The notes under the pieces were generated by a model. The model worked only from the letters and a program-made list of their open reading frames with translations. It searched no databases and was not told the origin of the DNA. Made by a program: the position numbers and the translations under genes. DNA of 58,959 nt, the filler included, from Sphacelaria rigidula (lineage: Eukaryota), in the NCBI GenBank assembly GCA_964200075.2. It is 10 parts of 10 records of this genome, joined end to end, with 100 filler letters (N's around TTAATTAATTAA, not from the genome) between each part and the next. Parts side by side here need not be neighbours in the genome. Positions count along the whole stretch, not along the records: positions 5,907 to 11,712 come from CAXNAA020024319.1; 9 more parts are not named here. One strand, given 5' to 3'. This document shows positions 1 to 55,300 of this stretch, piece by piece; position 1 is the stretch's first letter, and each line of letters opens with the position of its first letter.

Positions 1-249
1 AAACAAAGAAGAAAAAAAAAAAAGTCCCCCCCCCCCCCCCCCCCCCCCCTATCGTAGGAGGACTCCCAGCAACACTTAGGTCAGCTGAAGAAGGCTTGCT
101 ATTACCTGTGCGTGCGGCCGCTGAGGGAAGCCTTTGCCTCAGGGACTGGCGGTCGATCCTCCCACACCTCAGACTTATACTCGGCACTGACGGACCAAGT
201 TCAGGGCCCGGTGTAGATCTGAGTCGCGGGGTGACACGACTGTTACGCG

Positions 250-5806: not shown

Positions 5807-5906
5807 NNNNNNNNNNNNNNNNNNNNNNNNNNNNNNNNNNNNNNNNNNNNTTAATTAATTAANNNNNNNNNNNNNNNNNNNNNNNNNNNNNNNNNNNNNN
5901 NNNNNN
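5807..5906. other. Artificial contig-joining spacer (44 N + TTAATTAATTAA + 44 N); identical spacers at 11713-11812, 17619-17718, 23525-23624, 29431-29530, 35337-35436, 41243-41342, 47149-47248, 53055-53154
   Basis: Nine identical 100-bp blocks at exact 5906-bp periodicity; TTAATTAATTAA places stops in all six frames. Confidence 0.99.
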
Positions 5907-5954
5907 TCCTCTTTTCCGGCGTGGGGGGGGGGGACGGGGGGGGGGGGGGGGGGG

Positions 5955-6432
5955 GTGTTGCTCATGGTCTTGCATGCCGTAATCATATGACCATTGACCT
6001 CGCATCCCTGCAAAGCCGGGACGGAGCACGCCCGGTTTTCGCCGGACCAGGCTCGCAATCAATAACCAAGCGCGGAGCGCCGTGATGTGGCGAGTCGCAT
6101 GAACGGTGAGCTGTATCCTGCTACGATTGTTCGGCCCTTTGTCTTACATCTGGATGGCAGCTTCCGATGACTTGCTTCATTTTTTGGTTTCATCACTTCA
6201 AGAGACAGCCACGGGTCACACACTGCCTTATGGGTACCTCACCATCTAAGCACTACGTAATACTCGTACGATCACCCCCTTTGCGCGGAGTTGAAGTTCT
6301 CCCACCCCGCACATTATGATCTAGCTCGACCACCATCATGACTACAGCAAAGAAAGGGCAACCTGGTTGCCTTGCTTACGCAGTAAGTGGCGTGCTTTGC
6401 AGCGTCGTTGCCAACCGATTCCAACCCTGTGG
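5955..6432 (-). mobile_element. ~480-bp non-autonomous (SINE-like) retroelement with LINE-derived 3' end and poly(C) tail
   Basis: Near-full copies at 50969-51467 and 52350-52787. The terminal ~70 nt align with the LINE 3' end at 6628-6695. Poly-G (plus strand) at 5922-5955. Confidence 0.75.
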
Positions 6433-6627
6433 GAAGGAGGGGGGATTACTCATGATCTTGCATGCCGTAGTTATGTCACCATTGACGGGGGGGGGGGACT
6501 CATCTATTGCTTGTCGTAGTCGTTCGACCATCCACCACNNNNNNGGGTGGTGGTGGTGTGGGGGGGGGTGGGGGTTGCTGCTGGGTGGTGGTGGCGGGGG
6601 TGGGGGGAGGTGGGGGGGGGGGGGGGG

Positions 6628-9453
6628 GACTCATCTATTGCTTGTCGTAGTCGTTCGACCATCCACCACGCATCCCTTTCGAGACGGAGCACCGTTCCAA
6701 CTCCCAATAGAGACACCTCCAACATTCCGGCGCTCGTTACGTTTCTTCCATACATTACACAAAAACCTTTTACATATCCTATCCCCGTCCTGTTTCGCCA
6801 TCTGTGGCCACCATCTATCTCCTAGTGTAGCCGTCGTTTTCTCCCCGTCTAATCCATCAAACGATTTCATGCCATATTCGTTTACTTCCGCACTTCCTCC
6901 TTCCTCTAGCACGTCCCGTTCCTCCTTGTATACTTCACATTCTGCCACTATATAACCTCTGCTCTCCATTGCTTTGCCACAGGGGAAATTCTGTGCACCC
7001 TCTTTCTCCTCCAATTTCCTCCTACACTCGACTACTGGTTTATCTCGCTCTTCTTTCTGGCAGGTCCAGGTCCCCCATCCGGAATCGTGGTTCCAACCTT
7101 CTCGCCGAGTCCATTGGGCCCTGTATATTTGTTTTCATCCCGGTCTCCTCTCTCAACCCCCCGTATATCTTCTGGTATTTTTCCTCGTCTACTTTCCGTG
7201 TTGACATTTCTTCCTCTCTTATTTCTACCATGTCTCTTACTTGTGTCTTGTACCCCCCGCCTTCACCTGTGGACATTATCTCGTCGTCTTGGTTTCCTCC
7301 CATCTCTTTCCATACTTTCTCTACTACTCTATCCCACCTTATTCCACCCTGCTCTTTCGTCATTTTCTTCCATACAGCCCCATCAACTATGGTTGGCAAT
7401 CTCCTTCTCTGCATATTCTTTACGCTATATAGTCCTTTCAATTTGCTCATGTCTCTGTTTGTTTTTAGTGAGTACATTCCCAACTCTGCTCTCAAAACTG
7501 TATTACTAGTCGTTCTCGAGCATCCAAGTATCTTCTTGGCTACTGCCACCTGTACTGTTTCCAACTTTCCCACCAACTTGACGTTCCCCTCCCATACTTC
7601 TCCTGCATATTCCAGCTTTGGTACAATCGCGTTCATCAGGAAACATATCTTAATCCTAGTATCTAGGTGTGAGCCTCTGAGGATCACGTCCATGCTGCCT
7701 ATCTGTGTCTTACCCTTTTCTATTACTTTATTCATATGTGCATTTCAATAACACTTTTTTTTTTACCTTCGCGCCAAGGTATGTATACTGGTCTACGATC
7801 GGCAGTTCCTCTTCTCCCCACTTCCATTTGAACTCTACCGGATTTTTCTTATTTTCGTTACGTACAATTACAGCGCATTCGTTTACGTTCGCTGTCACTC
7901 TCCATTTCCTAGTGTATTCTAGCGCCTCCTCTATTTGCTTCTGCAATCCTTATGGTGTTTCTGATATCCCCACGAGATCATTCACGAATTTCAATCCCGA
8001 TACCGTGTCTTACCCCACCATGAATCCTTGCTTCGCTGCTTCCATTGCTTTCATCTTAGGTCATTAACCCTTTTGAAAGTCAAAATGGAAAATTAATCAT
8101 TTCCAGTTGACGGTTTTTGAGCAAGATACGGTTGATGGTTCACAGCTCAGACGCAACAATATTCGCCCAATGCGTATTTTTCAGACCCGTGCGAGTGACA
8201 AGTTGAACAAAAGAAGGTTCCCTATTTACCGAATGTGCCGTACCAGACCCTGGAACCCATTGCTCTTTTTTGAATGGAATGTTACAGTGTTTTTGCTAAT
8301 TATTATCGACGGATACAACTGGATACAGTTCATCTGTTGCGTGGTATGATTGGATTAACCTCACCCGACCTCTCCAGGGAGGACACTTTTTCCTGCACCC
8401 GCCGCGTGTGCTACTTGATTCTTGTTCGGTTTTCCACCATAAAAATGGTTGCCGTCGGCCTTTTTTTCTTTCCATCTTTTCCTCTGTAAGGGCTTCTCAT
8501 AATGAGGCATTTGGCCCGGGGACAGGAGGGGAGGGTTCCAAAAGGGTTTGTAAACGCTCTGAATAAAGCGAGCGATAACGCACATTCTTGTGCAACTCCT
8601 TGTAAAATATCAGAATATTTTGATACCGTCTAGCATCATGGTACTTTCGGCAACATTCTGTCATCTTCTTCCATAGCCTATTTCTCCATACTGTCATGGG
8701 CCTTTTGCACGTCCAGAAAGAAACACTACGTTGTCAGTTGTCAGCTCGGCGTCTTCCCTACCTTGAAAAATTTTACCTGATGTGTACACATGGTCTACGC
8801 AACTACGGTTTGGCTTGAAACCTGCTTGTCCCTCGCCGATTTTTCTTTCCTTTTCTAGCATCCTTCTCTATCGTTCAGGATCTTGCACAGAATATTTTCC
8901 CTACGGTGCTCAGTAGCACCATCTCCTTATAATTCCCTGAGTCAGCCTTCTCTCCTTTCTTGAAACGGTTGGCTACTGCTCCTTCTCTCCACCTCTTGGG
9001 TGTGTACTCATTTTTCTTATATCCAGTTATACAGCATAACGGTGATAGTAACCATCCCCTCTCCCCCGTACTTTGAAAATTCATCCACTATTTCATCTGC
9101 TCCTGCTGCCTTCTGTTCTTGAGTTTAGCTACACACTCCTTCATTTATTCTCTGGTGAATTATCTCTGCAATTCATTGGGGCCACTATCCTCCCGCGTTA
9201 ATGCCTCTACATTTGCCTCTGCCCATGCGTTCATTTCTTTCTCGAATTTCGTATCGAACCTCTTATTACGTTCTGGTGTTCCTAGTCTACGGTAGTGCTC
9301 TACTAGTACCTCCCTCTTCCCCTTCTAACCACCAACCATTTTACCATTCTGCGAACGTAGCGTGGCTATCCCCTTGCCTATCTTTCCTGCCTGGTTTCCC
9401 ATGATATATTTTATCCCTACCCACATTTGTTTCATCCCGCCATCGAAATCTTC
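6628..9453 (-). mobile_element. 5'-truncated degenerate non-LTR retrotransposon (LINE) ORF2: RT domain, C-terminal Cys motif and 3' end
   Basis: Minus-strand motifs: PKRWREG..FKKGEKADSGNY..LLSTVGKIF, QAGFKPNRSCVDH, FFLDVQKA, QGVAQEC.LS, decayed catalytic KFVND, YTYLG, VPKLEYAGEVW, PCGKAMESR.YIVAEC. Many stops and frameshifts. Confidence 0.93.
8068..8546. mobile_element. piggyBac-like MITE nested in the LINE RT domain
   Basis: TTAA (8064-8067) then CCCTTTTGAAA ... TTCCAAAAGGG (ends 8546). The LINE reading (F-I-N-D-L region) resumes across the insert; right TSD decayed to TTTG. Confidence 0.75.
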
Positions 9454-9833
9454 ATTTGGGGGGAGGGGAGGGGCGATGATAATTTTTACATGGAGGGTTA
9501 GAATGTGTGTGTTTTGTTAGGCCTTGACGTGTCATTCGGTGTCCGAGTCTGGTCCGTGAAAAGATTACGTACAGCTCAAGTTGATGAAATATGACCACAT
9601 GCGCATCCGGTTCGTATGTACAGAACACAGGGTACACGAAAATGAGTGATAGTCAACGTGCTGAAGCGTCGTCTGATGCCTGCATGCTATATAGCCTTGG
9701 GTGCGTACGTCCCTCTTACGACAACCCATACGGCTGTATTCGTAGCAAATCAATGAATATGCAACAGTCAATTAATCGACCACTCAACTCCCATCACCCA
9801 CTACATCGTGCGTATTTTGGGTACATTTCTCAC

Positions 9834-11243: not shown

Positions 11244-11638
11244 CTGTGATTTTTTGGCGGATGCAAACAAGAACGTTGAGGGTCATTTTAATGCGGTTTC
11301 GAAAAAAAAAGAAGGAAGATGTAATTAATTTTGATTCAATTCAGTACCGTACGTGCAGTACGATAAATTCGTTGAGGTGACTCAGAACAAAATGCATGCT
11401 CCAACCCAATACGGTCTATCGCGGGCGCCCTATCCGTGCTTTAGCCGTGAAGGCAGTCTATGCTCATGGATATATAGAGTGTGGAGTACCCACAAGCTGC
11501 TGAGTTCTAAATAAATTGGGCCTGTCGGGGGGGATGACCTTTCGTGAATGTCGCCTAGGAAATCGGAAATTGCGGGATCCAAGAAGCGTCGGGAACGTGA
11601 TTTCCACACGATATTTTATTTTCAGTTGTCGTTGCGCC

Positions 11639-11675
<37 letters not shown>

Positions 11676-11812
11676 GGGGGAAAAAAAAAAAAAAAGGAAA
11701 AAAAAAAAAAAANNNNNNNNNNNNNNNNNNNNNNNNNNNNNNNNNNNNNNNNNNNNTTAATTAATTAANNNNNNNNNNNNNNNNNNNNNNNNNNNNNNNN
11801 NNNNNNNNNNNN

Positions 11813-16300: not shown

Positions 16301-17618
16301 AGAACATTCGTCACACTTCATACAGGATATTTGCACCAAAACGCAGCATATTCCGGACAGGATAGGCTGAATTTTGGCAGGAAAGGGAGGGGGGCGCAGA
16401 AAAGGAGAGGGCGCACGTTGAGCACGGCAAAGACATAAACAAAGGGGTGGATATAACAAATATATAGACCTGTCGACTCAAGCTATTGGCCGCGCCGTAG
16501 AGGCATACATACAAGCGTTTTTGTAGTCTGCGCACACACGCACACTTAAAGATACATTTACACACATGTACTGTCAGGTTCGAGCTCCAATAACTCCGTG
16601 TGTCGCTGTCAACGTGGCAGCCAAGGACGATCACAGCCGTATCAGAAGCGGGTATGTGCGGTGCTAATGAGGGGGGGGAGTAACCACGTGATTTTGTTTT
16701 TGAGGTATCGACGGTGAGGGGCGCGTGTTTGCTATAACTAGTGATGTCCTCGGTCATCCAAATAGGACGAGCTGTCGCCACCTGGTTCTTGCAGTTTGGA
16801 CTGCTTGATCAGAGTGGTGTTCCGATAGCGGTAGCACTTTCGGGGCCGAATCCCGTGCGGTTCAGGTGCTCCTGAAGATCCTAGATGCTCAAGAATATGG
16901 TTCTGGGCACCTCCGTTTGCAAATTCATTTGGGACATCCACAGTACGTCTATTTTAAAACTCGTGTTGAGAACGTCATAAAGGGCTCCTAAACAAGTCTA
17001 ATCTGATACCGTGTTTGTGCACCCCTATCGCGGCATCGCTTATCATATTGTGGGGAGAAACCGTTTCCTTACTGAGCGAAGGAGAAACGTATCCAACGGT
17101 ATGTGGTGGCTGATACTCGAGATGATATGTACGTTCCTGTGGATGAATCGTGTTGTGGCCCGCGGTGTAGGTGCAAGCCCGAAACACTACATGTATATGT
17201 CAACCGCACCGCCGAAACGTATATGAGGGTGTGGAAAACGCAACATACTGTGTGGTGCCCTTGTGTTTTTCGAGATGAGGGGCAGAGAATGAAGGTATAA
17301 GGAATCGTCCAATTCTAGGGGCCGAAGAAAAGCGAGGGAAAATGTGAAGCGAGGGGGGGCGCAGACAATGACATAATGGTGTAGAACACACGTATACGAC
17401 GTGGAAATGTGCAGGGAAACATCATCGCATCAGACTGAAATACAAAGGGGGGGGGGATCATGCTTCGTTACCCGTGCTGTCGCGATAACCACTCTCTCAC
17501 CTGTCTGTGCCGTGTGTCAACGGCGAGCACATCGGTAACGCGAATGCCGTTTGGGCTGCTGCGTCTGCTTGCATGGACACGTACTTGAGTGGTTCCATGT
17601 TCGCCTTTGCTCTAATGG
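13373..17618 (-). pseudogene. Intron-containing DDD-type transposase-like gene (DUF7869/Sola-like), decayed, 5' end beyond contig
   Basis: Exons 17501-17618 (YVSMQADAAAQTAFALP), 15971-16059 (GYAERQNVMAVLVEG..FFL..IGG) and 15462-15711 (SNLIFTSIHL..LYLQLDNCVGEKNNHIVLGYL..LV.RG..FRMVGHTHIMIDQVFSR) join in phase. The 16059 acceptor reads CAA. Middle exons (~14200-14910) are frameshifted; the last exon (~13373-14039) is open. Confidence 0.75.
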
Positions 17619-17718: not shown

Positions 17719-17827
17719 AGAGTCGCTCTCCACTGTTGAGCACGGAAGAAAAAATCCCAGATCGCTCCGAGAATCGAACCCCACAACTCAACCACCAGAA
17801 GGTTACGAGGTTACCAACTGAGCCACA
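17719..17827 (-). mobile_element. tRNA-derived SINE, 5' head, cut by contig start
   Basis: Reverse complement has A box TGGCTCAGTTGG and B box GGTTCGATTCT; matches the 34154 and 40663 copies. Confidence 0.85.
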
Positions 17828-19506: not shown

Positions 19507-20417
19507 CTGGTGGACAGAACGGTGGGGGGGGGAGGGGGGGGGTTGGAAGGTGGGGGTGACCAAGCAGGTAAAGCATGGGTTGGGGGGGAGGGATGGGGGC
19601 GTGTACTCATGATCTTGCATGTCGCGGCCACAAGACTGTTGGCCTCGCTTCACTACAACGCCGAAACGGAGCGGCTTTAGCACGACATGTATTTCGTAGT
19701 CTTCACTCCCTGATACATGGAAGCATGCATATTCATTGAATCAAACAACCGTTATTTTGCACCTCTGTTCAGTTGCCGTTCCGGGGTCATTCTACAGTAT
19801 CTGACTCTCAATTACTTCACTTTCTCTACTTCCTTGTGACCTCTTGGCTGCGAAGTATTTTCGTGTTTTTTTGCAGGGCATTTTCTCGTACGCTTGCCCG
19901 AAACCACAGACGGTCACTTGCACCGAGTGTATCATAGATTACGTCGTGTATCAACCCCTTGGCTCCTGACCTCGATTTTCTCACACATAAACGACGCCCC
20001 CCGCACATTCCAATGTTAATTACACTCAAGAAGGTCTCGTTGATGATCCTCCACGGACAGACACAAATTGTATGGGAGATGCTTGTCTTCAGATAGACGA
20101 CAACAACAACAACAGTGGAGCGAAGTTTCAGCAGTCCATCACTTTTGTTGAACTCTTTTTTTCTTTCACGTCCTGGTCTACCATGTCGTTCTGTTGGACG
20201 TTTTTCTGCTCTCCTTTTCCTTGAGCGAGTGTTCCATTTTTTCTTTTCTTGGGCACGTCTCTCATGCGACCACGGCTGGACCCACGGGTTGTCAGCTCAA
20301 GTGCGACAATTATATGAAGAAATCATTAATCGCTCGGGGATGATGAACAACCGTACCCCAAGGTACAGCGACTCAAAGTGTCATCATCGCAGTCTAGAGG
20401 GGAGGGCTAAAACTCAC

Positions 20418-20616: not shown

Positions 20617-20810
20617 CTGTGCCGAGACGCGAAAGCAAAGAACAAATACGATACATTTTAATGTTATTTGTTTGAACGCTGGATGGGTGTTGACTGGTTC
20701 TTGTCTACGTATACATGTTTCATGTGGAACCCAAAGTAGTGTGAGAAGGACCGGCGGCTGTTGGCGTGGGGTAGAGAGGATTGAAAATTACCCCCCGCCC
20801 CCCCACGCCC

Positions 20811-21381
20811 TGCAACCGGTAGTAAGAAACATGGTAGAACTAAGGAGAAAAGGAACGCTCAGACGCAGAATAGACGAGGAAGAACACCTGAAGGTACACG
20901 GGGGGTTGAGAGAGGGGATAGGGATGACAACATATCTGCATGGCCCAATAAACTGCGCACAACAATTGGAAGTGCGATTTCGGGCAGGGGACATGGATCT
21001 GTTAGAAAGAAGAGATTTACCAGTAGTCGAGAGGAGGAGGAAGATGATACGCAGAATTGCCTCTGTGGCGAAGCAATAGAGAGCAGAAGTCATATAGTGG
21101 CAGAATGTGAATTGAACGAGGAGGAACGGGACGTGCTACAGGGGAAAATGCGGGACGTGAACGAAGGTGGCATGAAATCGTTTGATGCATTGGACAGTAG
21201 CGGGAAACCGTGGCTGTACCAGGAGATCCCGATGACCACGGACGGCGAAACAGGATGGGGATAAAATATGTAAACGGTTCCTGTGTGATGTATGGAAGAA
21301 ACGTAGCGAGCATGCACCTAAATGTTGGAGGTGTCTCGATTAGGAGTAGGAACGGTGCTCCGTCTCGCAAGGGATGCGTGG
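20811..21381 (+). mobile_element. 3' fragment of the poly(C)-associated LINE family, inside an HSP20 intron
   Basis: Homologous to the reverse complement of ~6660-7250 (HLKVHGGLREGIGMTTYLHGP..RFRAG); preceded by a C-rich tract at 20791-20810. Confidence 0.88.
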
Positions 21382-24513: not shown

Positions 24514-24913
24514 CCTTCCGAGAACTGCCCTCTTTCTGAGCCCTTCATCGCGGATTCTTGGCGGAATACGGGCCTTGGCGGATTGGGCCTTCTCTGAAAT
24601 ATTTGCTACGCTCTCCAGGAGGATTCTAGCGCACTCTATCGTTTTTCGTACGCCCAGTTTTACTTTTGGCCGGATTCCAGATTTTTGCAGTCGACCCAAA
24701 AGTCTTCGAGTTGTCGGAGAAAGCTTTTTGGGGGCGACGGAAAAATTCAGAATCCGGCCAAAAGCAAAACTGGGCGCACGAATGATCGTAAAAGTGCGCG
24801 AGAATCCTCCTGGAAAGCGTAGCACATCTCTCAGAGGAGGCCCAATCCGCCAAGGACCGCATTCAGCCAAAGATCCGCGATGTGAAGGCTTGAAAAGAGC
24901 ACTTCTCAGAGAG
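24514..24913. repeat. ~400-bp imperfect palindrome (foldback element), centre ~24712
   Basis: ccttggcggattgggcc..ccaggaggattct.gcgcac..cgcccagtttt.cttttggccggatt mirrored on the right arm, with a short loop. Confidence 0.9.
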
Positions 24914-28325: not shown

Positions 28326-30259
28326 AGACGTGTTGGACAGCCCATGCGCTACCCAATATACTTTATTAATGTGGGCTCTCAGATTCGTTGTCCACGAACA
28401 AAAACACGTGGCAGGAGGGGCCGAGAAGCCTGAGTGCTAACTTCTCGCTTCTTCGCGTGCTCGGTGTCCAGCACTGTAGGGAGCCAGCATGGAAAAAGGG
28501 GCCAAATGAGGTAGCTCATGATCCGGACCTAGTACACTAATAAGAAGTGATGTTCAGGCAGCTCACGAGCTGTCTGTCCGACGTGTGACATATTCTCGAA
28601 AATAAAATTCACATGCACAATCCGGCCGTGATGTGTGACCTCGCTGATCCTCAAAAACATATCCATCCGTAGTTTGTGAAACCCCTTGTTAGCGGGGGAT
28701 TCTGACAAATAAGAACGTTTTTTTTTTTTCATCAAGGGGAATAACCGGAGGTCGAAAATGCTCAGTATCAACACGGGATCTCACACAATGTTGTGGATGA
28801 ATTCATTTGAGGATGGGTGAGGGCTTACATCACGACCGGAGAGGGCATTTGTCCTCTTTTTTTTTTTTATATTCCGATACGTAAAAGGCCGCTCCTTACA
28901 ACAAGCAAAAATATATATTTGGAAAAGTGTTTTTTTGGAGCTTCTACGTCGTTTTACGCCCTCGAAGAAAGCCAGGCGGAGTTTGACACCTTGGAATGAC
29001 TTGCTCTACTCGTTGAGGTGGTGTCACGATATCTTCTCGTTCTCCGGTTGCTCCAGTTTTTATTTTCTCTCTAGGCGACGCACGGCGCGATATTAGGCGT
29101 TGGGCGCTGATATTTTGACAGCAGCTTTTCATGATCGATATGCAGAACATCACGTGAGCAGCGTTTTTTTTTTTCAAACGGGAAGTTACTGGGATTTGAA
29201 ATTTTAGCAAAAACAAGGAAATGTCATAAGTCCAGCAAAAAAATGAGAGCCTGCAGCTGCTCACGGGACGTATCATCCTTGGGTGCAGAAGGTCTTCGTG
29301 AAATTTCAGCTGAAGAGCCGTCGAATTGGGCCGTGCGTGCAACGTTTTGCGTGACGCTGCTGCATCCCACTAATACCCAGTGCGGGGTGATTGCTGACAT
29401 GAACCCACCGCATTGAAAAAAAAAAAAAAANNNNNNNNNNNNNNNNNNNNNNNNNNNNNNNNNNNNNNNNNNNNTTAATTAATTAANNNNNNNNNNNNNN
29501 NNNNNNNNNNNNNNNNNNNNNNNNNNNNNNAAGCAACAAATGAGTCCGCCCCCCCCCCTCCCCCCCCACTCCCTTCCTCAAGCTTCCTTCAGCGATCGCT
29601 TCCGTTTTGTTTATCTTGCGTACATCCATCTTGACGATAATAAGCACAGTTGAATCCGTGGGGGGAGCCGTTAATGTGCGACAACCAATCAATGGATCAC
29701 ACAAACTACAGTGTTCGGCACGCGATTGAGTAAACCACGATCGACCCGCCATGGCCAAAATGACAACACGCTGTTTTCTGTGAGCGCAAGGCTTGATCTT
29801 ATCGGATTGAATCTTTTATGCCAAAATTAAACAACGTTTTACAAGGAAACATCTGAGTGCACGCCAAATTTGAATGTAACAACTTCGGTCGGTATCTACC
29901 GATCGACTGCATTTGAAGAAAATTCGGATTTTATGGTAGGGATCGGCAAGCTCTTTCCAAGGAGGCACCGGGGCTCGGACGCGAGTGGCTGCTCAAATCC
30001 TACGAAAGCTCATGTATAAAGGACGTATTTCGGTTGTCCGTTACTTGAAAAATAAGTAACCTTGACCGCTGAATACCCCGAAGCCTTGTGCGTGGAGCTG
30101 CTCCGATCTCTCGTGTTCTGAGCAACTTGGCGGCTGCACCACGATCAGTTTCACCGCCAGAACAATATGCACATATCCAACCCCTCCCCTCCCCTCCCCT
30201 CTCGACCCCCCCCGGAAAACATTCCTTTACAACGTCGTGTTACTGTACCACAATCTCAG

Positions 30260-34153: not shown

Positions 34154-34510
34154 GGTCGCCCCGGTGGCTCAGTTGGTAAGTTCGAAACCTCCTGACGGTT
34201 GGGCCGTGGGTTCAATTCTCGGAGCGACCTGAATTTTTTTCTCACATCATGCCCAACAGTGGAGAGCGATTGTGTCGTGGGTACACAAAATTCGACTGAG
34301 CGCTCGACGAGGGAAAGAGACTGTTGATCCCCTCTCGCGACAAAAAATAGAGGCAAGCACCGCAGAAGGAAAGTGGGGTGCTAAAAAACAAACAAAAAAG
34401 AAAACACTCCTGTGTTGACCTTCCTCCCGTGTGACCCCGGCTGGTGCGCCCACATATCCCGAAAGGTGTACACTGGTGTTCAGAATAGAAGGGACAACAA
34501 CACACAACAC
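34154..34510 (+). mobile_element. Full-length tRNA-derived SINE (~360 bp), in a BBS7 intron
   Basis: A box TGGCTCAGTTGG, B box GGTTCAATTCT, shared body and a CAACA-rich tail; four copies in the window. Confidence 0.88.
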
Positions 34511-35276
34511 GCGCATGAAAGAAACCCAAGGAGAAGCGGGGTCACTCTCGTAGTATCCGCAAGGGAAAATTACGGTATCAAAGCGACATCGTTTAGAGCA
34601 TAACCGCCTGTTCATCCGTGGCAGAGAACTAGCTGGGACCGCCGACATTCGCTCTCCGAGGAGGTAGGATATATGTCAAACTGACGCAAATGACCACCAC
34701 GACAAGGTTGCAGGATCAGGCATCATAGGGTCGAAGGCAAGCATTACTGAGGAGACCAAAATCAAAATGGGTCTTGGATGCTATGCAAGCACGGACTATC
34801 CCACCGGGAGTCCATTTCAGGCTGGGAAAGGACAAGGACGGAGTGATGCTATGGTAGGGGTGCACAGTTTGTTTCTGGGGTCGTAATTGTCGGGAACCCT
34901 CTATCTAATTCAAAACATCACCTGTGAAACGTGTGAGAGTACGCCAGGCTTACTGTTGTTTCAATGTGCTGGGCATACAGCATCCCGAGCGATTTTGTAA
35001 GCGGCGATGCCCTGACCCATGTTCTTGTGCATCTAGAATCGTTAGGAGCCCCTGAACCAGACAATATTTCGCGCGCAAAAAGTGCACCCCTACCGTAGCA
35101 TTGGTCGACGGTGTTGCAACGAGTCTGTCAAAAACCGGAGTGCTGGTGGTCCCGGCTTCTCTGTATGAAGCTGGCACTGCTGTAGACTAGAGCAAACAAA
35201 GCATCGCAGACTTCATACACAGGAATTCGTTTGAGTGATGATAACCCGTATGAATCATCCTACGATAGGGGGGGGG

Positions 35277-35336
35277 GTGTACTCATGATCATGCTTGCCA
35301 TAGTCATCAGACCATTGACCTCGCATCCCTACAAAG
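35277..35336 (-). mobile_element. 3' end of the poly(C)-tailed SINE-like element, cut by contig end
   Basis: Poly-G then tgtactcatgatc..gaccattgacctcgcatccct. Confidence 0.8.
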
Positions 35337-38300
35337 NNNNNNNNNNNNNNNNNNNNNNNNNNNNNNNNNNNNNNNNNNNNTTAATTAATTAANNNNNNNN
35401 NNNNNNNNNNNNNNNNNNNNNNNNNNNNNNNNNNNNCCTTGGCATGGAGACCGCTGAGACTACGGACGCACCGCCCCTCCAAGCTCATCACCTACCATGA
35501 ATACATTCAGGGGATCATGTTCCGTGTCGTGTGCCTCGGCCACCTACCACTTGTAGTCCGGGCAAATTTGGCGAGGCGTGAGATAATGTCGCTACCTTGG
35601 CCACAGGCTGTCGCTACCGTGCGCTCGTATAGTGTACATTAATGTGTGTGAGCATTGCCGGAATTCGAGGTCATCGGGACAGGGCGGTCAAGAAGCAGAA
35701 GCAAATCTCGCAGAGCCCGCCAGAGTTTTCGGTTCCTGTCAGTGTTTGTCGATCAATCTCTTTCAACAATTTCAAGAAGAAATCACAAAACAAAACACAA
35801 AAAAAATGTCGAAAATCATGACAATTTTCAAAACATTGCCCTCCGGGAGGGGGGAAGGGGGGGGGGCCTCCGTGTCCGATTTTTTTCTCTCGACAGATCC
35901 TTGGTGGCATCAGCAATCCTACGAGCAGTGGGCAAATGGCTAGTGCGCCACGCGTTCGCACTTATGTACTGGGTACTGGACTGTTGGCTCGTCGTGTCAG
36001 AATGTCTTCCGTGGAGAAATAACAAGATACACGACGGGTAGCCGCTGCGACTATTACAGTGCAACCCGATTCAAGGTTTCAAGATTGTGTTCTGTAGGGT
36101 ATACAGTACACCGACTGAAACTAGGGTATTTACAAGAGTACTAAATATGTTTCTTCTCGGCAATTGCCCTTCCGGACCATACCGGAGCGTTCGGTGCAGA
36201 TGGCGACATGATTGAGTATGCCAACCAAGAACCCCCTACTACCGGGCATACCCTACAAAACATAACATTCCGACGTTCACTCGCAGTGTTCGATTCATCC
36301 ATAACCTAGGCTAAGGGACGTTGTGAAATGTGAAAAACGTGTTCCAGCGACCACCCGCGTACATGTGCCCACGGTAAACAGACCGGAGCACACGTTTTGT
36401 ACAGGAAAACTCGAGTGTATGAAGCGCAAGACACGCGAGGGGTGAAAAAAAGAGGGGGGTAGCGGGCGAAGGTAGAAACGAGATACAGGAGGAAAACGTA
36501 GACTGACAGAGACACCGGACAATAAATAGTTCCAATATAAATGGTCGAGAGGTCCCCGACAGGCTCTTGGGAGGATGACGTCGTACAAGAACCAAGCCCA
36601 TAGGAACAGGCTACACCTTGGCTATCCGAAGGTTATCTTATCCCACGCAAAAGTTCTGAACTACCAAACCTGGAGTCAGAAAACATGGACAATTATGTGA
36701 CGCCGCAGGAGGGCAAATAGAATGAGGACAGGAGAGCGACCATCGTAGGTGAAGGGGCGTAGCGCCTGAATCTCGATAAACACCTCCCGCTGAATAACAC
36801 GCCAGGGTGAGGCACGCTTTGCTATTTTTGGCACCATATATATCGTGATCGACCGTAAAAATTCAGGGGTACATACTGTATCACCTCCTGAATACCAACT
36901 CTGCGTGGTTGATTTGTGGGTCCCAAGAAGTCATTACCTGGAAACCATTTACACCGTCCCCTGGGGTAGTGGGGGTAGAAGCCAGGGAGAAAATGAATGC
37001 AACAACCGACAAAACAGGGTCCTGTGTACTGCAGGGCAGACAAGGCCTTCACGGGGTTTGGCGGTAAAGTCTGTCCTTCGTTTGCGCTTCAAGTGTTGAG
37101 AGTTTTGTGCCGATACTAAAATCAGCACAAGATCGCCTGCTAAACCGCAGAGAATAATAATGCACAAGAAGCTACGGACGAGAGGTTTAGTTGGTGGCGA
37201 AACAGTAGCGGTTATTGCACAGTCGTCCGAGATCATGGTACTTCGCATGGTTCATGTAATTCCCCCATGAAAATGCGCTGATTCCCCTTTCACTTTTCTC
37301 CACTGTCACCACACATGAATCACGCCATGTCCTCGACATCGGATAGCACACGCTAACAAACCCCGAGCATGTTTTTTTATCGCTGCTATCAAACGAACCA
37401 TACCACGTAGCTTGGCCACTATCAACTCAAGGCTATAGATGTGGTGCTTTTACGCTACCGTAGGCCACGGAGCACAACACCCAGGCCGATAAAAGACCCA
37501 TCTTCGATTTTCAAGCAGACTGCAGCAGCTAGCCGCGCCGGCAAGAATAATGTCGTTGAAAACATCTTGTCGACATTGTATTCATCGGGAAATGGTATCT
37601 CACAGCAGTCAGCGCGATGAAGGGCCTTGTGTATCGAGGTAAAATCAAAATCCTGGTTTTTACTGCTCAGGGTATTCGGTCACACGACTTTACATGTTGT
37701 CGTGATCGTAATCGCACCCATCGCAGTTGAGGAAAGGCAGTTGAGGGATTATAGCTGTTTCGAGGGAAACCCCATGGGCCACGACTAGATTTTTTGCGAA
37801 GCTTGACAGCAACACACTCCTTAACATCGACAAGAACAACTGCTACACAAGCAACGGCTAGGGCAGTACGGGGCATCCACTAACGAAGAGCACAAAACAC
37901 ACGTCATGAATCGCCAACACCTGGCCCGTGTAATTTGCAAGCTATCTTCTGATTGCCCTCGCATGGGCTGGTCATTCGTAGGATTGAAATTGTGGTGACA
38001 ACCCGCGTGTAGACATCGTCTATCAGTCTACTGACGATCAAATGCAGACTCAGAGCTAGGGGCTGTGAAAAGCCGCGAACAGGGCATAATAAACAAGCGA
38101 ATAGTAGATTGTTGCCGTCTACACCCATTCCATACAACTTCCACTGAAGCTAACCAATCCACGCACGGAAATGGAATGACCTTACGACCGAATGGTATAC
38201 GCGAACGGACTCGTCACAAAATACGAAAAAAAACTTTCAGTTGAGGCGAAAACATTCAGTAGCCTGCCTAGCTTGATGCACTAGCGGAACCGAACCACGC

Positions 38301-40662: not shown

Positions 40663-41020
40663 GGTCGCCCCGGTGGCTCAGTTGGTAACGTGGAAGCCTT
40701 CTGACGGCTGGGACGTGGGTTCTAATCTCCGTGAAGTCACACGATCTGGGGTTTTTCTCACACCATACCCTGCAGTGGAGAGCGACCATGCCCTGGATCC
40801 ACTATTTTCTACTTCACGGTCGACAAGGGAAAGGGACCACTGACCCCTTTTCGCGACTGAAAAAAAGGCAAGCACCACAGAAGGAAGGTGGGGTACTCAA
40901 ACAAGAATTAAAACAAGTCCTGTGCTGACCTACCTCCCGTGTGACCCCGGCATATGCGCCCACATATACCGGAAGGTGTACACTGGCGTCCAGAATAGAT
41001 GGGATGACAACACAACACTC
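40663..41020 (+). mobile_element. Full-length tRNA-derived SINE
   Basis: Homologous to 34154-34510; ACATG occurs on both flanks (possible TSD). Confidence 0.88.
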
Positions 41021-42719
41021 ACATGGTTGAGGTTACGATATGGCCGGGGCCTCAGGATCTCCTGAACCGAAGAGATCCCGTAGAGCTGCGGTATATAGTA
41101 GCAGCCCTTTTGACGCCTAATTGTGAGTCGGTAGCTCTTGTAGTTGGCCGAGCTGTTTCCGGGAGGGGGGGGGGGGGGGGGGGGGGTTACGAGTAGAAAA
41201 CTTCTAAGGAAGTCTGGGTGATAAGCTTCAACTCAAAAAAAANNNNNNNNNNNNNNNNNNNNNNNNNNNNNNNNNNNNNNNNNNNNTTAATTAATTAANN
41301 NNNNNNNNNNNNNNNNNNNNNNNNNNNNNNNNNNNNNNNNNNCTGGGGACCATCTGCATATCCACAAGGAAACTAGTTTTAATTCAGTCTCTCAGTCATT
41401 TACCATCACAGGCAATAATTAGTTTTCAGATGTCGGTAAAATGCCCCTAGCTCATGAAAAACAAAATCTCTTGTGTACGCCGGTTATTTTTTTAATTATG
41501 CCCTGCTCATTGTCCATACCAAAATTTAGGGTCCAACTCCAAGTATTGGTCGTATAATCGGCCTGCAAACTGCAGAATCGCTTCTCGGCTGGCCCAGCTC
41601 GTACGAATGCAGAGCCCCCCCCTACCTCGAAGCCCCTCGTTGACCTGTCAGCGGGGGTGTAATGACGAAGACTTCATAAGGTGTCAAATCTGCTTCTACG
41701 ACACCCGTGCTGAGCTCTTGTCTGCTTTCCAACGGCAATTGTTCCAAGAGAAAGAGGTGTTTGCCTCGAGAAACGACAACTCCACTCTTCGGAAAGTACC
41801 GCGGAACACTACCTTCCTCCCCTCTCCTCCCGGAGGGAACCCCGTGACGCCACCAAGCAAAATCGACCCTTAACCCCACAATAAAAAACAGAACCCAACT
41901 CGACAGTGTACCCGGCCTACGGCCACCAGGAGCGGAGCCGGACACTGGACCACCGCCTACGGTAAGCATTACCTCCATACATTTATTTTCGCCGTTGAAC
42001 CCCTTTTCTACCATGTATAGTCCCATTTTCATCCTGCCCTCTCCCACCTACATCAATAGAGAGTTTCGGAAAACGTTTTTTCAAATCTTAGAGTGGGAGT
42101 GGGAGGTAAAATAGCCGGGAAATAACGGTTCACACTCCGCTATAAAGTATTTTTCAGAGATTGTTTTTCAAAGTGGGGGTGCCGTTTGCACCACTCCACT
42201 CTGAAAACCGTTGTTCCTCTTCAGAGTTCATAGCGGAATAAAAAAGAACCACGCCCATCTTCACCACCATGGTCACGTCCAGCCCAAAGTCAATACATCC
42301 TGACAAGCAAAGTGATGCATTCATCATCCATCAAAACTGTCATACTCATCGCAGTGGGCCAATCACGAAGTAGAAAAGCTTGGCATTGCAATCAGAAGAC
42401 CTCCCTGACGCCGCCATGGTATCAGCATTCGCTTGGTTGTGTTGCGTGAAAATCAAAATGCTCGACGGGTACACGTTGTGTTGGGTGCAGTTCCTCACTC
42501 TTGCCAGCTTCAGCTGGAAGAACACAGTGGTGGGAACGATTCGTTGTCTACAGCGCGCAAACAGTACTACACCTGGTTGTATTCCCATCCCGTGAGAGAT
42601 CATAACGTCTTGCACCACCGTTATGGGTGGCATGTGGAGAAATCATCGCAATGCAGCCGAGGTCTGCTGTTTGAAAGTGCTGCGTACCGTACTGTCTGTA
42701 CTACTGTTTGTACAACTGA

Positions 42720-43832: not shown

Positions 43833-44206
43833 GTGTTCCGCTGGACTATTTGTAATTGTCCTGCACCCACCCAGGCTACACTATTACAGGCTGCTTTTCC
43901 GATTTTTCTACCATTTTCCGGTTTGAAGTTGCGTTCCAATCAGACATTCAGTGATTTGTATTCGGCTGGACCATTTGTAATTTTCCCGCACCCACCCAGG
44001 CTACACTATTACAGGCTGCTTTTCCGATTTTTCCACCATTTTCCGGTTTGAAGTTGCGTTCTAATCAGACATTCAGTGATTTGTGTTCGGCTGGACCATT
44101 TGTAATTGTCCCGCACCCACCCAGGCTACACTATTACAGGCTGCTTTTCCGATTTTTCCACCATTTTCCGGTTTGAAGTTGCGTTCTAATCAGACATTCA
44201 GTGATT
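43833..44206 (+). repeat. Three near-identical 125-bp tandem repeats in the retroelement leader
   Basis: ctggac at 43841, 43966 and 44091; units differ by only a few substitutions. Confidence 0.95.
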
Positions 44207-47148: not shown

Positions 47149-49515
47149 NNNNNNNNNNNNNNNNNNNNNNNNNNNNNNNNNNNNNNNNNNNNTTAATTAA
47201 TTAANNNNNNNNNNNNNNNNNNNNNNNNNNNNNNNNNNNNNNNNNNNNACAAACGATTAAAAGCCCATAACGGACTTTACCTATGGGACAGAGAGAGTAG
47301 TACATGTCATATGAGCCAGGTCGTTGTTTTTAGGTGACGCGTGTATTTATGGCTCACCTCCCACAGATGGGAGTCACTCAAAGTAAAATGAAATATCTTC
47401 GCGTTTTTGATTGACAGCTGCACAGTCATTATTTGCTCGTTTCAACTCTGTGTACAGCACTTTGATCTCACCCCACTTCTGTGCAGGCCGGAACACAGCA
47501 TGCAGCACTACAAGAACTGTTCAGGCACTCTCCAGCAAAGATCACACTGTGATCGTTGTAGAGTGTGAAGATGCACAACAGCCCAGCGACGACTACAGCG
47601 AAGAAATGATGGGTGTGGGAAGCGCCGTGTTCGTTTGACTGGAGTGTCTAGAGACCGCTGCGTGCCGACAGCACTGTTTTTCGAAGCGAACGCCATGACA
47701 GAAGTAAAGCAACTCAGGCAGTCAGTCCCGGCGGAGACCAAGCCGTCTTCGAAGCGGCCTGGAGACACCAGAGCGCAGCGACAGCTACAGCGCAAGAGAC
47801 AGCGCATGAGTGTGTTTGTGCTGCGGCACAGTGATACAGGACATGTCCCATGCGATAGTTCTTCCCTTGATTTCGGATGGGCTCGATTTTGGCAAAGGGG
47901 CGGGTTTCAAACGCTGAGCCAAGTTATTTCACCTTGAGTTATCTCCCTGCTTGCTGATCTGCCTCGCCTGTTGCGGGATCGGATGATCAGCGGTACGGTA
48001 GCTCCCTTGCGGGATTGGATTATACACCATCGTTGTACTACAACTTGTCTGCTGTGCGGTATCTGTGTGTACAGTAGGTTCTAAGAAGCACAACACTGTA
48101 GGCGTGTTAAGGTTTTGAAAAGTAACACTGCAAACACTGCAAGACTGTGTTGTTTTCAGTGTATTACCCTGTACTCCATACAATGGGGTCATGTTTTGAG
48201 CAGTTTTTGAAACGTTCTCGAAAAGTTCTGCTTGTTTTTCTGTCACAGAAATCCAATGCCGAATCTGGAATGGCCTGAGGCAACAGCCAATTTGAAAATT
48301 GGAATTGTGTATGCCGTGAATTGGCGATCCACGCCACGACGAGCTAGAATATATTTGCCCGAACGAAGTCACACGCTTCGTGCCGACGGCCGCATCATTG
48401 TATGATGTGGTTGGCGATGTCGAGAAGAGTGCGAAAACGACATGTTCGTAGTACATGGAATCAGGAGTTTCGGAGACAAACAGCCAAGTGGTGACAGACA
48501 GACATCTGCGCGCGGCAGAAAGCCCTTGAAAAGAGCTTCAATCGATACAGGCTTCTACCCTGCAGGCCTCATAAAACTGAAGGTTGAAACAACCGAGTGC
48601 CGCGAGATTACTATCGTTTCCATTACTAGTTCGAGAAACTCAAATACCACAAAAATAACATCTCTACTACCTCGTACAAAGTTTGTATCTTCCGCGCAGC
48701 ACCGCAACCGCGGTGGTCGGGTCTATCTTATCCCCCAAAAGCACGTAAATAACTACATATTCGTTGTTGCATATGGCGGACGTGTTGTACTTGAACAATA
48801 CTGTTAATATCGAACACAAGGACAAGCGACAGAAAAAAAAGGAGAACGTAGCCATCAGACGACTGGGACACCCGCGAGTGAAGCAACTGAACTACCACCA
48901 GAGTCAAACATACATGCACAAGTAATCGATGGCGTTATGACAAGCTGAATCAAGCACCGACTAGTCCACCGAGTAACAAAAAAAGGGATCTTCGCAAAAG
49001 AAATCGGAAAGAGAACACCGTAATATAACCTAAACGTACACTATCGTCCGCATTCCGCCCAAACAAACATCTTTTTACTCCTCACTATAGCCGAGCTTGG
49101 GAAATGAACGAACAAAACAAAAACGTGCAAGGTGCATACCCCTTCGCCACGGGCGTCCTCTAGTAGTGAGTAACAAAGGTAATAGCAGGTACTCTAACAA
49201 TGAAAAAGGGGCAGCAACAAGCACGGACACAACACAAGAAAAGAAACGCGACCTATCGTGTCAGTACAAGGAGGATATGATGCGTACGCTGGTACGATAA
49301 AGCCAAAGACATCGATCGAACGGCCAGGTCGAGCAGCGCGGGTAGGCTCCATCGCCGTTTCATACTAAAGTCCTTCCTGCTAGAAGGTATCATCTTCGTG
49401 TTGTGTGCGCCAGGCAGTACAAACACTGAGGACTCAGTGTCCTATCCATCTTTGTGCGACCCCGCCGGGAACGTTTCCAGTCGTCCAACGATGATTGGCT
49501 CGGCAGCGAGGGGGG

Positions 49516-49579
49516 CGTACTCATTTGTTGCTTGCCTTAGTCGTTTGACCATTGACCGCGCATCCCTTTCGAGACGGCC
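49516..49579 (-). mobile_element. Extremely 5'-truncated LINE 3' end with a 14-bp TSD
   Basis: Matches 6628-6690; flanked by CGGCAGCGAGGGGG at 49501-49514 and 49580-49593. Confidence 0.85.
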
Positions 49580-49636
49580 CGGCAGCGAGGGGGTGGGCCG
49601 TCAGATTCTCCCACTCGCAGTCACTAGCGATACTCA

Positions 49637-50821: not shown

Positions 50822-51467
50822 TGCCACTCATGAAAATCACGCTGTAGTCATCAGATCGTTGACCTCGCGTCCCGAAACTTCAGGGGCTGAGCGGTATACT
50901 CGGTTTTCGGGTGGCCAGGCTGCACTACAAAATGACCACTTACAAAATATAAGAGTGGGCAGGATGAGAGTGTACTCATGATCTGGTATTCCATAGTGAT
51001 ATTGATCGTTGATCTCGCACCCCTATAAAGCCGGGACGGAGCACGCCGGATTTTCGTCGACAATCGATTCCCCAGCGCGACGCGCGGTAATGTGTTCGGC
51101 ATGTCGCATGAAGGGTGAGCTACATCCTGCTAAGATTGTCGGGCCCGAAGCGTACTGGTTATCTTGCATTTGGATGATAGCCTACAATGAGCTGCTTCAT
51201 TTTCTGGTATCACCGTTTCCAGAGACAGCCACAGGTTACACACTGCGTCATGAGTGTCTCACAATGAATACACTACGTGGTGTAAGCATCCCCTTTGCGC
51301 GGGGTCGAGGTTATCCCATTCCACACAATATGACTTTAGCTCCACCACCATGAGGGTTACCGCAAAAACAACGCAAGCGATCAAAACAAATCGGTAACCT
51401 GGTTGCCTAACATACGCAGTGAGTCGCGTGTTTTACAGTGTAATAGCCATCCAACGCAAACCCCACA
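50822..51467 (-). mobile_element. Poly(C)-tailed SINE-like element: short 3' fragment (50822-50925) plus near-full copy (50969-51467)
   Basis: Homologous to 5955-6432. Confidence 0.8.
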
Positions 51468-52349
51468 GGGGGTGGGGGTGACGGACCGACGGAGTTACCC
51501 ATGGGAAATGATTTCGGCCTGTAGAACTGAAGTTCATACCCGATGATCAAATCATGAGCAATTGGTCTGAGGCGTTCTCTTCCGAGTTCCAGCGATGCAC
51601 CTTGACGAAACTAGAATGAGTGGTGGGTGGGAAAATATGATGTGGAGGTGACCGGGCACGTGAAAACTTCGTTGTGTATACCGATCCTCTCTTGCGAGGG
51701 CAACACATCCGGAAAGGTATATGAACACCCGAGCATCTTCTTTACTCGAAGTGTACGAACACACCTCACCCCGTCATTCATCAAGCAGGTAGCCTGCAAC
51801 TCGTGCAATACGGTACTAAGTGCCTACACCCACCCACCGCGGCACCCACCAGCCAAACAGAAAGAAACATGTGGTCCACCAAGGAACTATGGCACTTGCG
51901 ATAGGGCTCAGCCGGAGCGTTCTCAGTCAAGACAGTTAATTCACCAGCGGTGATCGATAGCACCGTAATAGTGGGTTGGAGACGAGAAAATGTAGAGTTA
52001 TGACGAGGAGTGTGGGTGGGGAAATGAAAAATTTACCTACAGGAACAACTTCCCCCCAAAACCAAATTCGTGGAAAGGAACAGGCCAGGTTTCTCCGAGT
52101 GCAAGGGAGCATCCAAAACATGATGAACGGTCTTACTGAGTACGAGGGTGCTTCCTCCAGCACGGCGTGACAAAGCAACGCAATAGCGGTCACACAGGGT
52201 GGAATAGTTCGAAGGCTTGCGCCGATGTATGTCAATAGAGAACAGGATTTAGTGCAAAGAAGTATAAAACAGTCGCACCAGTGACGGGTCGAAAACAGGG
52301 CAACAAACCAACGTCGGAAACATTCTTCATGAGGGGAAGGGGAAGGGGG

Positions 52350-52787
52350 GGTGTACTCATTGACATCGCATCCCTAGAAAGCTGGGACGGCAATCACCAA
52401 CACGAAGCGCCATGATGTGTTCGGCGAGTCGCATGAAGGGAGAGCTGCATCCTACCACGATAGTTCGACCAGAAGCGTGCTGATTATCTTGCAACTGAAT
52501 GACAGCCTCAAATGAGGTGCTTCATTTCATCATATCCTCACTCTGAGAGACAGTCATGGGTTACACAATGCCTCATGGGTGTCTCACCATATAAACAACA
52601 CGTAGTACGATCATCGCCTTCGCACCGAGTTCGGGTTCTCCACCCCGCGTAATACGATCTAGTCCGACCACCTTCATGGTTACGACAAAAAAAGTGCAAG
52701 CGAAGAAAACCGCGGTAACCTGGGTGCCTAGCTTACGCAGTGAGTGGCGTGTTTTACACCGTCGTTGCCAACCGATGCCAGCCCTGG
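52350..52787 (-). mobile_element. Poly(C)-tailed SINE-like element, near-full copy
   Basis: Homologous to 5955-6432; G-rich tracts on both flanks. Confidence 0.8.
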
Positions 52788-53154
52788 AACGAGGTGGGAG
52801 GGGGACGCAAACTGTGCAGTACAAAAAGCAATGGAAAAAGGTGAAAAATCATGCCAGGTAGAGTACAGAGAGCAGTGCTTCGATAGTGCAGCACATCGTC
52901 GCTGGAGTATACATTTTTCATAACTTCACGACTTCGCCAATTGCCTGCACCTGAGAGGCTTGACCCCAGCTCTGAAAACGTGGGGTATGACTCTCACGTG
53001 AAATTACCCAGGCATTCTTGAAAAAGGCGAGGGGGGGGGGGGGGGGTAATAAAGNNNNNNNNNNNNNNNNNNNNNNNNNNNNNNNNNNNNNNNNNNNNTT
53101 AATTAATTAANNNNNNNNNNNNNNNNNNNNNNNNNNNNNNNNNNNNNNNNNNNN

Positions 53155-54938: not shown

Positions 54939-55300
54939 CCATGCTTGTTCGAACAGGTTGACAGGGGAGTCAGGATTTCCCATGTGTTTTCGAACGGTTG
55001 ACAGGGGGCCAGGAGTTTCCCATACGTGTTCGAACAGCTTGCCACGGATCCAGGATTTCCCATGTATTTTTCAACAGGTTGACAGGGGGCCAGGCGTTTC
55101 CTATGCGCGTTGAAACAGGTTGACAGGTGGCCAGGAGTTTCCCACGTGCATGCAAAAAGGTTGACAGGAATCAGGATTTCCCATGTGTTCTCGAACAGGT
55201 CGGCAGGTATCCAGGAATTCCCATTCCGTCCGAACAGGTTGACAGGTGGCCAGGATTTTCCCCTGTGTTGTTCGAACAGGTTGACATGAAGCCAGAATTC
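54939..55300. repeat. ~40-bp minisatellite, 9 diverged units (ccatgtgttttcgaacaggttgacagggggccaggatttc)
   Basis: Head-to-tail units with no unique spacers. Confidence 0.92.

Follow-up and report, generated by a model that had tools for sequence, protein, structure and literature searches.

A brown algal LINE and its non-autonomous partner end in a C run and may be primed from G runs

The DNA studied here, called the window below, is a stretch of 58,959 bases from the brown alga Sphacelaria rigidula (assembly GCA_964200075.2), and it contains a retrotransposon family whose copies are followed by a run of C at their 3' end. The family is a non-long-terminal-repeat retrotransposon with an apurinic/apyrimidinic endonuclease (APE type), i.e. 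a long interspersed nuclear element (LINE), plus a non-autonomous partner of ~490 bp. An earlier note on this DNA had suggested that the family uses the mirror image of L1 chemistry, with a G-run primer on a C-tailed RNA. Of this suggestion the C-run terminus is solid, and the targeting of G runs has thin but direct evidence: one target-site duplication (TSD) that begins with five C's, C runs near 10 of 12 5' junctions, and head-to-tail arrays. Reverse transcription primed by a G run on a C-ended RNA is the best reading of these observations, and we consider it rather probable.

The window consists of ten contig pieces of 5806 bp each (the last 5805), joined by 100-nt spacers of N44 + TTAATTAATTAA + N44 (5807-5906 plus eight more, 11713-11812 to 53055-53154). 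Since the contigs are separate and the spacers artificial, the sites named in the earlier note are independent, unlinked loci.

The LINE, its partner and their common 3' end

The copies found in the window are given below, where P0002 is a 1360-aa metagenomic protein used as reference for the LINE.

6629..9457, minus strand: decayed 5'-truncated LINE with reverse transcriptase (RT), C-terminal region and CCHC motif (tblastn to P0002, several frames)
6631..6633, minus strand: LINE stop codon TGA, 2 nt ahead of the C run here and 5 nt (TGAGTACG) in better-kept copies
6612..6628, minus strand: C17 directly after the LINE 3' end; length unreliable because of the G-rich low-complexity sequence and the N gap beyond it
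6498..6538, minus strand: exact duplicate of the last 41 nt of the LINE, then C11 at 6487-6497, beside the N gap 6539-6544
20811..21381, plus strand: second 5'-truncated LINE fragment, P0002 residues 1158-1349, last ~40 nt missing
29531..29567, plus strand: final 18 nt of a LINE-type end where a contig starts, then C10 T C8
49516..49577, minus strand: LINE-type 3' module copy of 62 nt, with plus-strand G6 at 49510-49515 (nhmmer E=3e-17)
5956..6430, minus strand: partner copy S1, full-length (blastn to 50975-51463 and 52391-52799; 3' module alignment)
5923..5955, minus strand: C20 GT C11 after the S1 3' end, 16 nt from the contig start; length unreliable
50972..51480, minus strand: partner copy S2 with C-rich 5' head (51467-51480) and no 3' C run (blastn)
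52345..52801, minus strand: partner copy S3 (52352-52785) with 3' tail C7TTC4TTC4 and C-rich 5' head (blastn)
6445..6486, minus strand: partner-type 3' module of 42 nt, extreme 5' truncation (nhmmer E=6.7e-9)
19582..19675, minus strand: ~72-nt partner-type 3' fragment (19604-19675), then a degenerate C-rich tail
35268..35336, minus strand: partner-type 3' end (35278-35336, cut by the contig end), then C10 and unique flank
50826..50925, minus strand: partner 3' fragment without C run

The LINE and the partner have only their last ~70 nt in common, as in a stringent LINE-partner pair. In an alignment of 14 sequences of this shared 3' module, 10 columns are invariant and 22 nearly so; the module ends ...ATGAGTAC(G/A), followed by the C run. 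All runs listed in the earlier note are present, and in the alignment each of them abuts the conserved end ...CATGAGTAC of the LINE or the partner. On the plus strand they read G11+AC+G20 at 5923-5955, G11 at 6487-6497, G17 at 6612-6628, G7 at 19582-19588 followed by agggatggggg, G10 at 35268-35277, G6 at 49510-49515 and G7 at 52345-52351, and in reversed orientation C10/C8 at 29549-29567. In relation to the element, the C runs never switch strand.

We counted a 3' end as carrying a run when at least five C's start at most 4 nt from the last conserved base, which holds for 0.68% of positions in the window as background. Eight of the ten window copies have such a run, in line with the claim that nearly every 3' end abuts one; the two without are the 3' ends at 50972 and 50826. 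Here the ends at 6498 and 6629 are counted once. The stretch 6487-6538 is 100% identical to 6618-6669 across the N gap, and the duplicate of 6629-6669 at 6498-6538 is, judged from this identity, probably a scaffolding artefact.

The same end is found outside the window, where a run is present at 8/10 LINE-type loci (L007 was dropped as its 3' end is missing, L006/L009/L018 count as one locus, and so do L008/L011/L019). These runs are C8 in L001, CCTC7 in L002, C11GC5 in L003, C10 in L004, C10 in L005, C13 in L006, C10TC9 in L008 and CCCCAC7 in L017; L020 and L021, old copies of 76-81% identity, are followed by merely C-rich sequence. Among diverged partner-like copies in another assembly, 2/5 have the run, and L026, L027 and L031 do not. 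The LINE family of L005 is only 49% identical in protein and has the run, therefore the trait is of greater age than the family seen in the window. At 35268, 49510 and 52345, as in 8 external contigs of other assemblies, the assembly continues through runs of 6-13 into unique flank.

The run follows the coding sequence almost directly. The LINE ends ...AAC AAA TGA GTACG and then C's, i.e. the 3' untranslated region (UTR) has ~5 nt (2 nt in the window copy); all external loci read AAATGAGTACG and then C's, and in every intact external copy the stop of the open reading frame (ORF) is 5 nt ahead of the run. The LINE ORF continues to the element's end, which makes the shared 3' module coding. The codons for the residues ...GC(V)VNG... 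near the stop form the core of the module (GCGTGGTCAATGG). Shortly before their stop, the relatives P0009, P0014, P0016, P0022, P0036 and P0050 (39-52% RT identity, most ~50%) read ...GC(V)VNG... or ...VNG/VDG..., and many other listed relatives do not. No poly(A) follows the stop at any of the 10 window and 10 external LINE-type ends, as it would in an L1-type element, and none was seen after any copy, as the earlier note had said.

What lies beyond the run differs between loci. The flanks are unrelated, bar a motif of 10-13 nt in a minority, so no conserved element sequence continues past the run; such a continuation would, according to the earlier note, have refuted its proposal. Nor are the junctions random or A-rich, given the external loci above and the G-run consensus in four public sequencing runs. 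The Logan contigs of these four runs (three studies) were mapped onto contig 9; they are contigs and include no long reads. Just past the 3' end of the element, loose ends occur in 85+321+55, 75+266+66, 89+342 and, in the smallest run X6, 49 contigs. Their plurality consensus ends in 8-20 G on the plus strand with an overall agreement of only 0.40-0.49, therefore a G run adjoins the element and the sequence farther out is heterogeneous. Over the 3' module the summed depth, which is not a copy number, reaches 2.43, 0.97, 2.78 and 0.16 million versus tens in unique bins, and over the partner bins 0.4-1.1 million. The family is clearly very abundant.

The protein domains place the family among the APE-type LINEs. 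By tblastn, P0002 residues 571-1360 align to 9456-6634 in several frames, and a 234-aa ORF at 7040-7744 is 63% identical to P0002. Pfam finds the RT domain RVT_1 in P0002 (E=9.8e-31) and in P0004, as well as the APE-like N-terminal endonuclease Exo_endo_phos in both (3.4e-12 and 8.1e-15, respectively), and a C-terminal C-x-C-x8-H-x4-C motif is readable in the sequence of P0002. Full-length relatives have a single ORF of ~1360-1380 aa with APE endonuclease, RT and C-terminal CCHC motif. The window LINE copy has no endonuclease domain, being truncated at residue 571, and eight ORF fragments of the window gave no RT match in Pfam, while the full-length relatives do match. The 5' truncation is variable: two copies begin at residues 571 and 1158, others only 42-72 nt before the 3' end. 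Within the first LINE lies a foreign insertion:

8066-8548: 483 bp, not LINE sequence, with 13-nt terminal inverted repeats AACCCTTTTGAAA / TTCCAAAAGGGTT

This insertion resembles a small derivative of a DNA transposon.

Among solved structures (phmmer against PDB) the best match of P0002 is human L1 ORF2p (E=6.6e-21), and R2 is nearly equal (8.8e-20); this comparison therefore does not tell L1 from R2. By its motifs, the RT may be closer to I/Jockey-like groups. The Atlas gave only generic RVT_1 clusters, and no clade name occurs among the 120 relatives listed. The named relatives are unnamed proteins of Ectocarpus with 60-77% identity, and one public run containing contig 9 is labelled an algae metagenome, both pointing to a brown algal host. 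In viral contigs no relative was found. An intact full-length copy with a 1382-aa open frame is present on L009, an algal contig within the bin of a bacterial metagenome-assembled genome (MAG). The ~1 kb upstream of its ORF has no match in the other copies compared. At L009 4193-5259 (minus strand), the intact LINE has V instead of ATG at the start position of P0002, and ~600 nt upstream there is an antisense fragment like the 3' module, without a run. The algal contigs of LINE and partner L006-L031 sit inside three bacterial MAG bins (G001-G003) and represent contamination by host DNA.

The partner is found by blastn in three full-length copies in the window, 5956-6430 (S1), 50972-51466 (S2) and 52352-52785 (S3). 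No head of RNA polymerase III type (tRNA, 7SL, 5S) was detected in the window, where no Rfam family reaches its gathering score and ARAGORN calls no tRNA. The partner may be a deletion derivative instead of a polymerase III short interspersed nuclear element (SINE).

Target site, arrays and the priming from G runs

The target of an insertion can be read directly at one copy, the 62-nt copy at 49516-49577, which lies in unique sequence and is flanked by an exact TSD of 14 nt (16 nt with one mismatch).

49501..49514, minus strand: 3' copy of the TSD, on the element strand CCCCCTCGCTGCCG; exact 14-nt match in 45-nt flanks, recovered again in an independent scan
49580..49593, minus strand: 5' copy of the TSD, the same match

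By our arithmetic, the chance of a 14-nt match in 45-nt flanks is ~4e-6. The TSD begins with CCCCC (C5) and the rest is unique sequence. In the standard geometry of target-primed reverse transcription (TPRT) the bottom strand is nicked at the left edge of the duplication, and a TSD that starts with C5 therefore means that the priming strand ended ...GGGGG-3'.

C-rich sequence is also found on the other side of the element. A C run lies within 20 nt of 10 of the 12 5' junctions, at different points of truncation. In the window these are the junctions of the LINEs at 9457 and 20811, of S1, S2 and S3, of the 42-nt fragment and of the 49577 copy; outside they are those of the partner in L006, the fragment in L005 and the LINE in L017. 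The earlier note had pointed out two of them, which are as it described:

9458..9473, minus strand: C-rich 5' junction of the truncated LINE, CCCCTCCCCTCCCCCC
20791-20810: C-rich stretch ahead of the second LINE fragment, CCCCCCGCCCCCCCACGCCC on the element strand

In the public runs, the 5' loose ends of the 49577 copy (115, 90, 133 and 34 contigs) show AGCACCG(TT), after which the sequence is G-rich or a G run; thus many copies are truncated to their last ~77 nt, and there too a C run lies upstream.

Copies also follow each other head to tail, in the order tail, (C)n, next element, at 6445-6628 and in L005, L006 and L017. In the first of these, the 42-nt fragment (6445-6486) has the C11 run on one side and, on the other, the C-rich junction CCCCCCTCCTTCCC (6431-6444). 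The joint that 'goes back 68' is present in 43, 23, 44 and 4 contigs of the four public runs. The TSD, the 5' junctions and the arrays are all as expected if the element inserts at G/C runs, which for the most part would be tails left by earlier copies.

From this anatomy of the DNA, the abundance, the one TSD and the arrays, we infer a specificity of the nick, a pairing of primer and RNA, and C's on the RNA, and suggest the following mechanism. In the bottom strand, the endonuclease would make its nick immediately 3' of a G run. The strand that now ends in G's would pair with the C's at the 3' end of the element RNA and, once paired, prime reverse transcription. New copies would end in a C run, with a TSD beginning in C's, and the tails of earlier copies would become preferred targets, from which head-to-tail arrays and C runs at 5' junctions would follow. 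The RNA would probably obtain its C's by transcription of the run of the source copy itself, rather than by a later addition; a post-transcriptional 'poly(C) tail' is the less likely origin. Recognition specific to the 3' module can be argued from its conservation in the non-coding partner, and not from structure.

Several observations weigh against priming from G runs. First, at the clean copy the 3' run is C6, only one C longer than the duplicated C5, therefore this copy cannot separate a C-ended RNA from a tail-less RNA at a G-run nick. It is also the one clean TSD: a scan of the whole window for an upstream repeat of 'CCC + 10-mer' gave just 49516-49577, and no TSD was found at the external loci. 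(The scan also matched an unrelated pair at 24720/25186 and some tandem repeats of contig 10, which were inspected and dismissed.) The 5' junctions at 19675 and 50925 are not C-rich, and 7/25 copies, S2 and the fragment at 50826-50925 among them, have no run, which fits decay, though decay is not proven. The 3' module has no significant fold (z = -0.43 versus shuffles), and its alignment fold of 10 pairs contains only 1 compensatory change, i.e. no clear covariation. A TATCGTAG-type motif stands right after the run at four 3' junctions and is not explained by the model. It reads TATCGTAGGA at window 50-59 and also, in reverse complement, at 35258-35267 (contig 6), TATCATCGTAGGA in L004 (2482-2494) and, as a variant, TATCGTAGAA in L020 (~1444-1455). 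Either a target motif or a short 3' transduction could account for it; that it represents the head of a further repeat found no support, the flanks at the two window sites and in L004 sharing only 10-13 nt. Finally, every assembly used is short-read, so that array structure and run lengths are uncertain, and as to RNA, none of the public runs listed is recorded as such, and X6, only guessed to be RNA and seen as contigs, is silent on RNA 3' ends.

A different explanation is that the C run is the templated terminal simple repeat of the element, with a unit of one base. The RT would start inside the repeat, maybe with slippage, and the nicks would have no preference for G, while C-rich 5' junctions and arrays would come from template jumps of the RT or from chance insertion into abundant earlier copies. 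The ~70-nt 3' module that LINE and partner have in common is of the stringent recognition type, the run is retained in the distant L005 family, and tandem module-(C)n units are very common, as template jumping would give, all in agreement with a templated repeat. However, a random target would begin with C5, as the clean TSD does, only about once in 1000 cases, and the C-rich 5' junctions include S2, S3 and the LINEs at 9457 and 20811, which lie in unique sequence with no element before them. We regard this explanation as unlikely.

It is also conceivable, and in our view a distinctly poor bet, that the element lacks a tail altogether and inserts specifically into C/G mononucleotide tracts, all flanking C's being duplicated target. 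This overlaps with the model of G-run priming, and the sole difference is whether there are C's on the RNA or not. That the run in the clean case nearly equals the duplicated C5 would agree with it, and so would the C-rich stretches of similar length on both sides of S3 and of the LINE at 9457; microsatellite-specific APE LINEs do exist, according to the excerpt of PMC3812793. On the other hand, C8-13 followed by unrelated unique sequence (L001, L003, L004 and 35268) would require a long pre-existing tract every time, and the target of the clean case has just 5 C's, so a long tract is unnecessary.

That the runs are artefacts of poly-G sequencing or of assembly, a concern also of the earlier note, is hardly credible: long runs at 7/20 contig ends, some with homopolymer junk (C34 G7 A15GGA15, 11640-11712), and the stretch duplicated across the N gap at 6498-6538 would suit it, but it is already contradicted by the constant strand of the runs relative to the element, by the runs of 6-13 that continue into unique flank in independent assemblies (seen as contigs only), and by the runs that lie inside the TSD at 49501-49514 and 49580-49593.

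Other G/C tracts and repeats in the window

The assembly is broken at long G/C tracts, and run lengths at such places are untrustworthy; this concerns the longest runs, at 5923-5955 and, beside the N gap, at 6612-6628. A G/C run of at least 8 lies within 100 nt of 7/20 contig ends in the window, and homopolymer junk is present at some ends, e.g. at 11640-11712. Long G/C runs and A/T homopolymer junk occur at the contig ends 1-49, 11640-11712, 41165-41242 and 53031-53054. The end of contig 1 (5738-5801) is identical to the end of contig 10 (58896-58959) and is found reverse-complemented at the start of contig 10 (53163-53229), which is either a contig-end repeat or an effect of the assembly graph.

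G8/C8 words are observed 132 times in the window versus 1.9 expected. There are 25 runs of at least 8, most of them with no recognisable end of the C-run-tailed family beside them. Runs of 10-22 away from the 3' module are found at 41165-41186, 53031-53046, 17447-17456, 35857-35866 and 56261-56272, the last flanked by two direct repeats (CCCTACGYGGTCTAAC...). C runs are also found after another sequence end, ...TGCGCCA, at 11624-11673 (C34, contig end) and in L020 at ~1456-1474 (CCCCACCCCCCCCC), and this hints at a second C-tailed family.

Other repeats include three tandem units of ~125 nt and an array of ~40-nt units (window 43833-44206 and 54947-55261). A repeat that is tRNA-like by eye (GGTCGCCCCGGTGGCTCAGTTGGTAAG...GGGTTC) is present at 34154-34220, 40663-40729 and 17780-17826, with no ARAGORN or Rfam call there.

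Comparison with known retrotransposons

L1-type LINEs and their partners of Alu/B1 type have a poly(A) tail and are primed by a T run at a TTTT/AA nick. The algal family resembles them in its 3' homopolymer, in a TSD that starts with the tail base, in same-orientation arrays in old tails, in frequent 5' truncation and in having a non-autonomous partner. In contrast to L1, the homopolymer is C and not A, AATAAA and poly(A) are absent, the 3' UTR has ~5 nt and there is a single ORF; and unlike in the L1/Alu pair, the partner shares ~70 nt of 3' sequence beyond the homopolymer.

Stringent LINE-SINE pairs with short 3' tandem repeats are known from the eel, UnaL2/UnaSINE1, and from the CR1, L2 and RTE clades. 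As in these pairs, one specific 3' module is common to the LINE and the non-autonomous element, and the end is a simple repeat, not poly(A). The algal repeat unit is, however, a single C, the 3' module lies within coding sequence, and the TSD begins with the tail base, which suggests pairing of primer and tail as in L1.

A preference for simple repeats and a reuse of earlier insertion sites, which the algal family may share, are known from microsatellite-targeting APE LINEs, of which Waldo (ACAY), Mino (AC), Kibi (TC), Koshi (TTC) and Dong (TAA) are given in the excerpt of PMC3812793; no C/G mononucleotide target is in the list of that review. In the algal family the sequence is C-rich at 10/12 5' junctions and at 18/25 3' ends, and the clean target is only C5 plus unique sequence, which would suggest a preference of the nick rather than strict residence in repeat arrays. 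L1 elements of lizard and frog also have a C-rich tract near the LINE 3' end: according to the excerpt of PMC5381506, their 3' UTRs contain poly-C or C-rich tracts that are internal, followed by AATAAA and poly(A). Unlike in the tracts described there, nothing conserved follows the algal run in 18 loci.

In the literature we found no C-tailed LINE or SINE described, with the limit that the bracketed spelling 'poly(C)' is unsearchable and that Repbase/Dfam were not compared. We see about an even chance that this is a brown algal LINE/SINE system with C:G TPRT, C-ended RNA, a nick at G runs and self-renewed targets, and the first LINE with a homopolymer tail other than poly(A).

If the priming model is true, the rule of L1 that the tail pairs with the nick would not be bound to polyadenylation, and another homopolymer with a matching nick preference would be possible. 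The family would then be a natural comparison for the choice of targets by LINE endonucleases and for the engagement of the primer by the RT. The recognition module inside coding sequence would be an unusual double constraint on one stretch, and its peptide recurs in several relatives of ~45-50% RT identity. For the genome of the alga, a C tract would be left at every insertion, and very many G/C tracts and arrays of the ~75-nt tail module would be scattered through it. The abundant G/C tracts explain the breaks in short-read assemblies, with a long run at 7/20 contig ends, and such transposon-seeded tracts can form G-quadruplex or i-motif structures.

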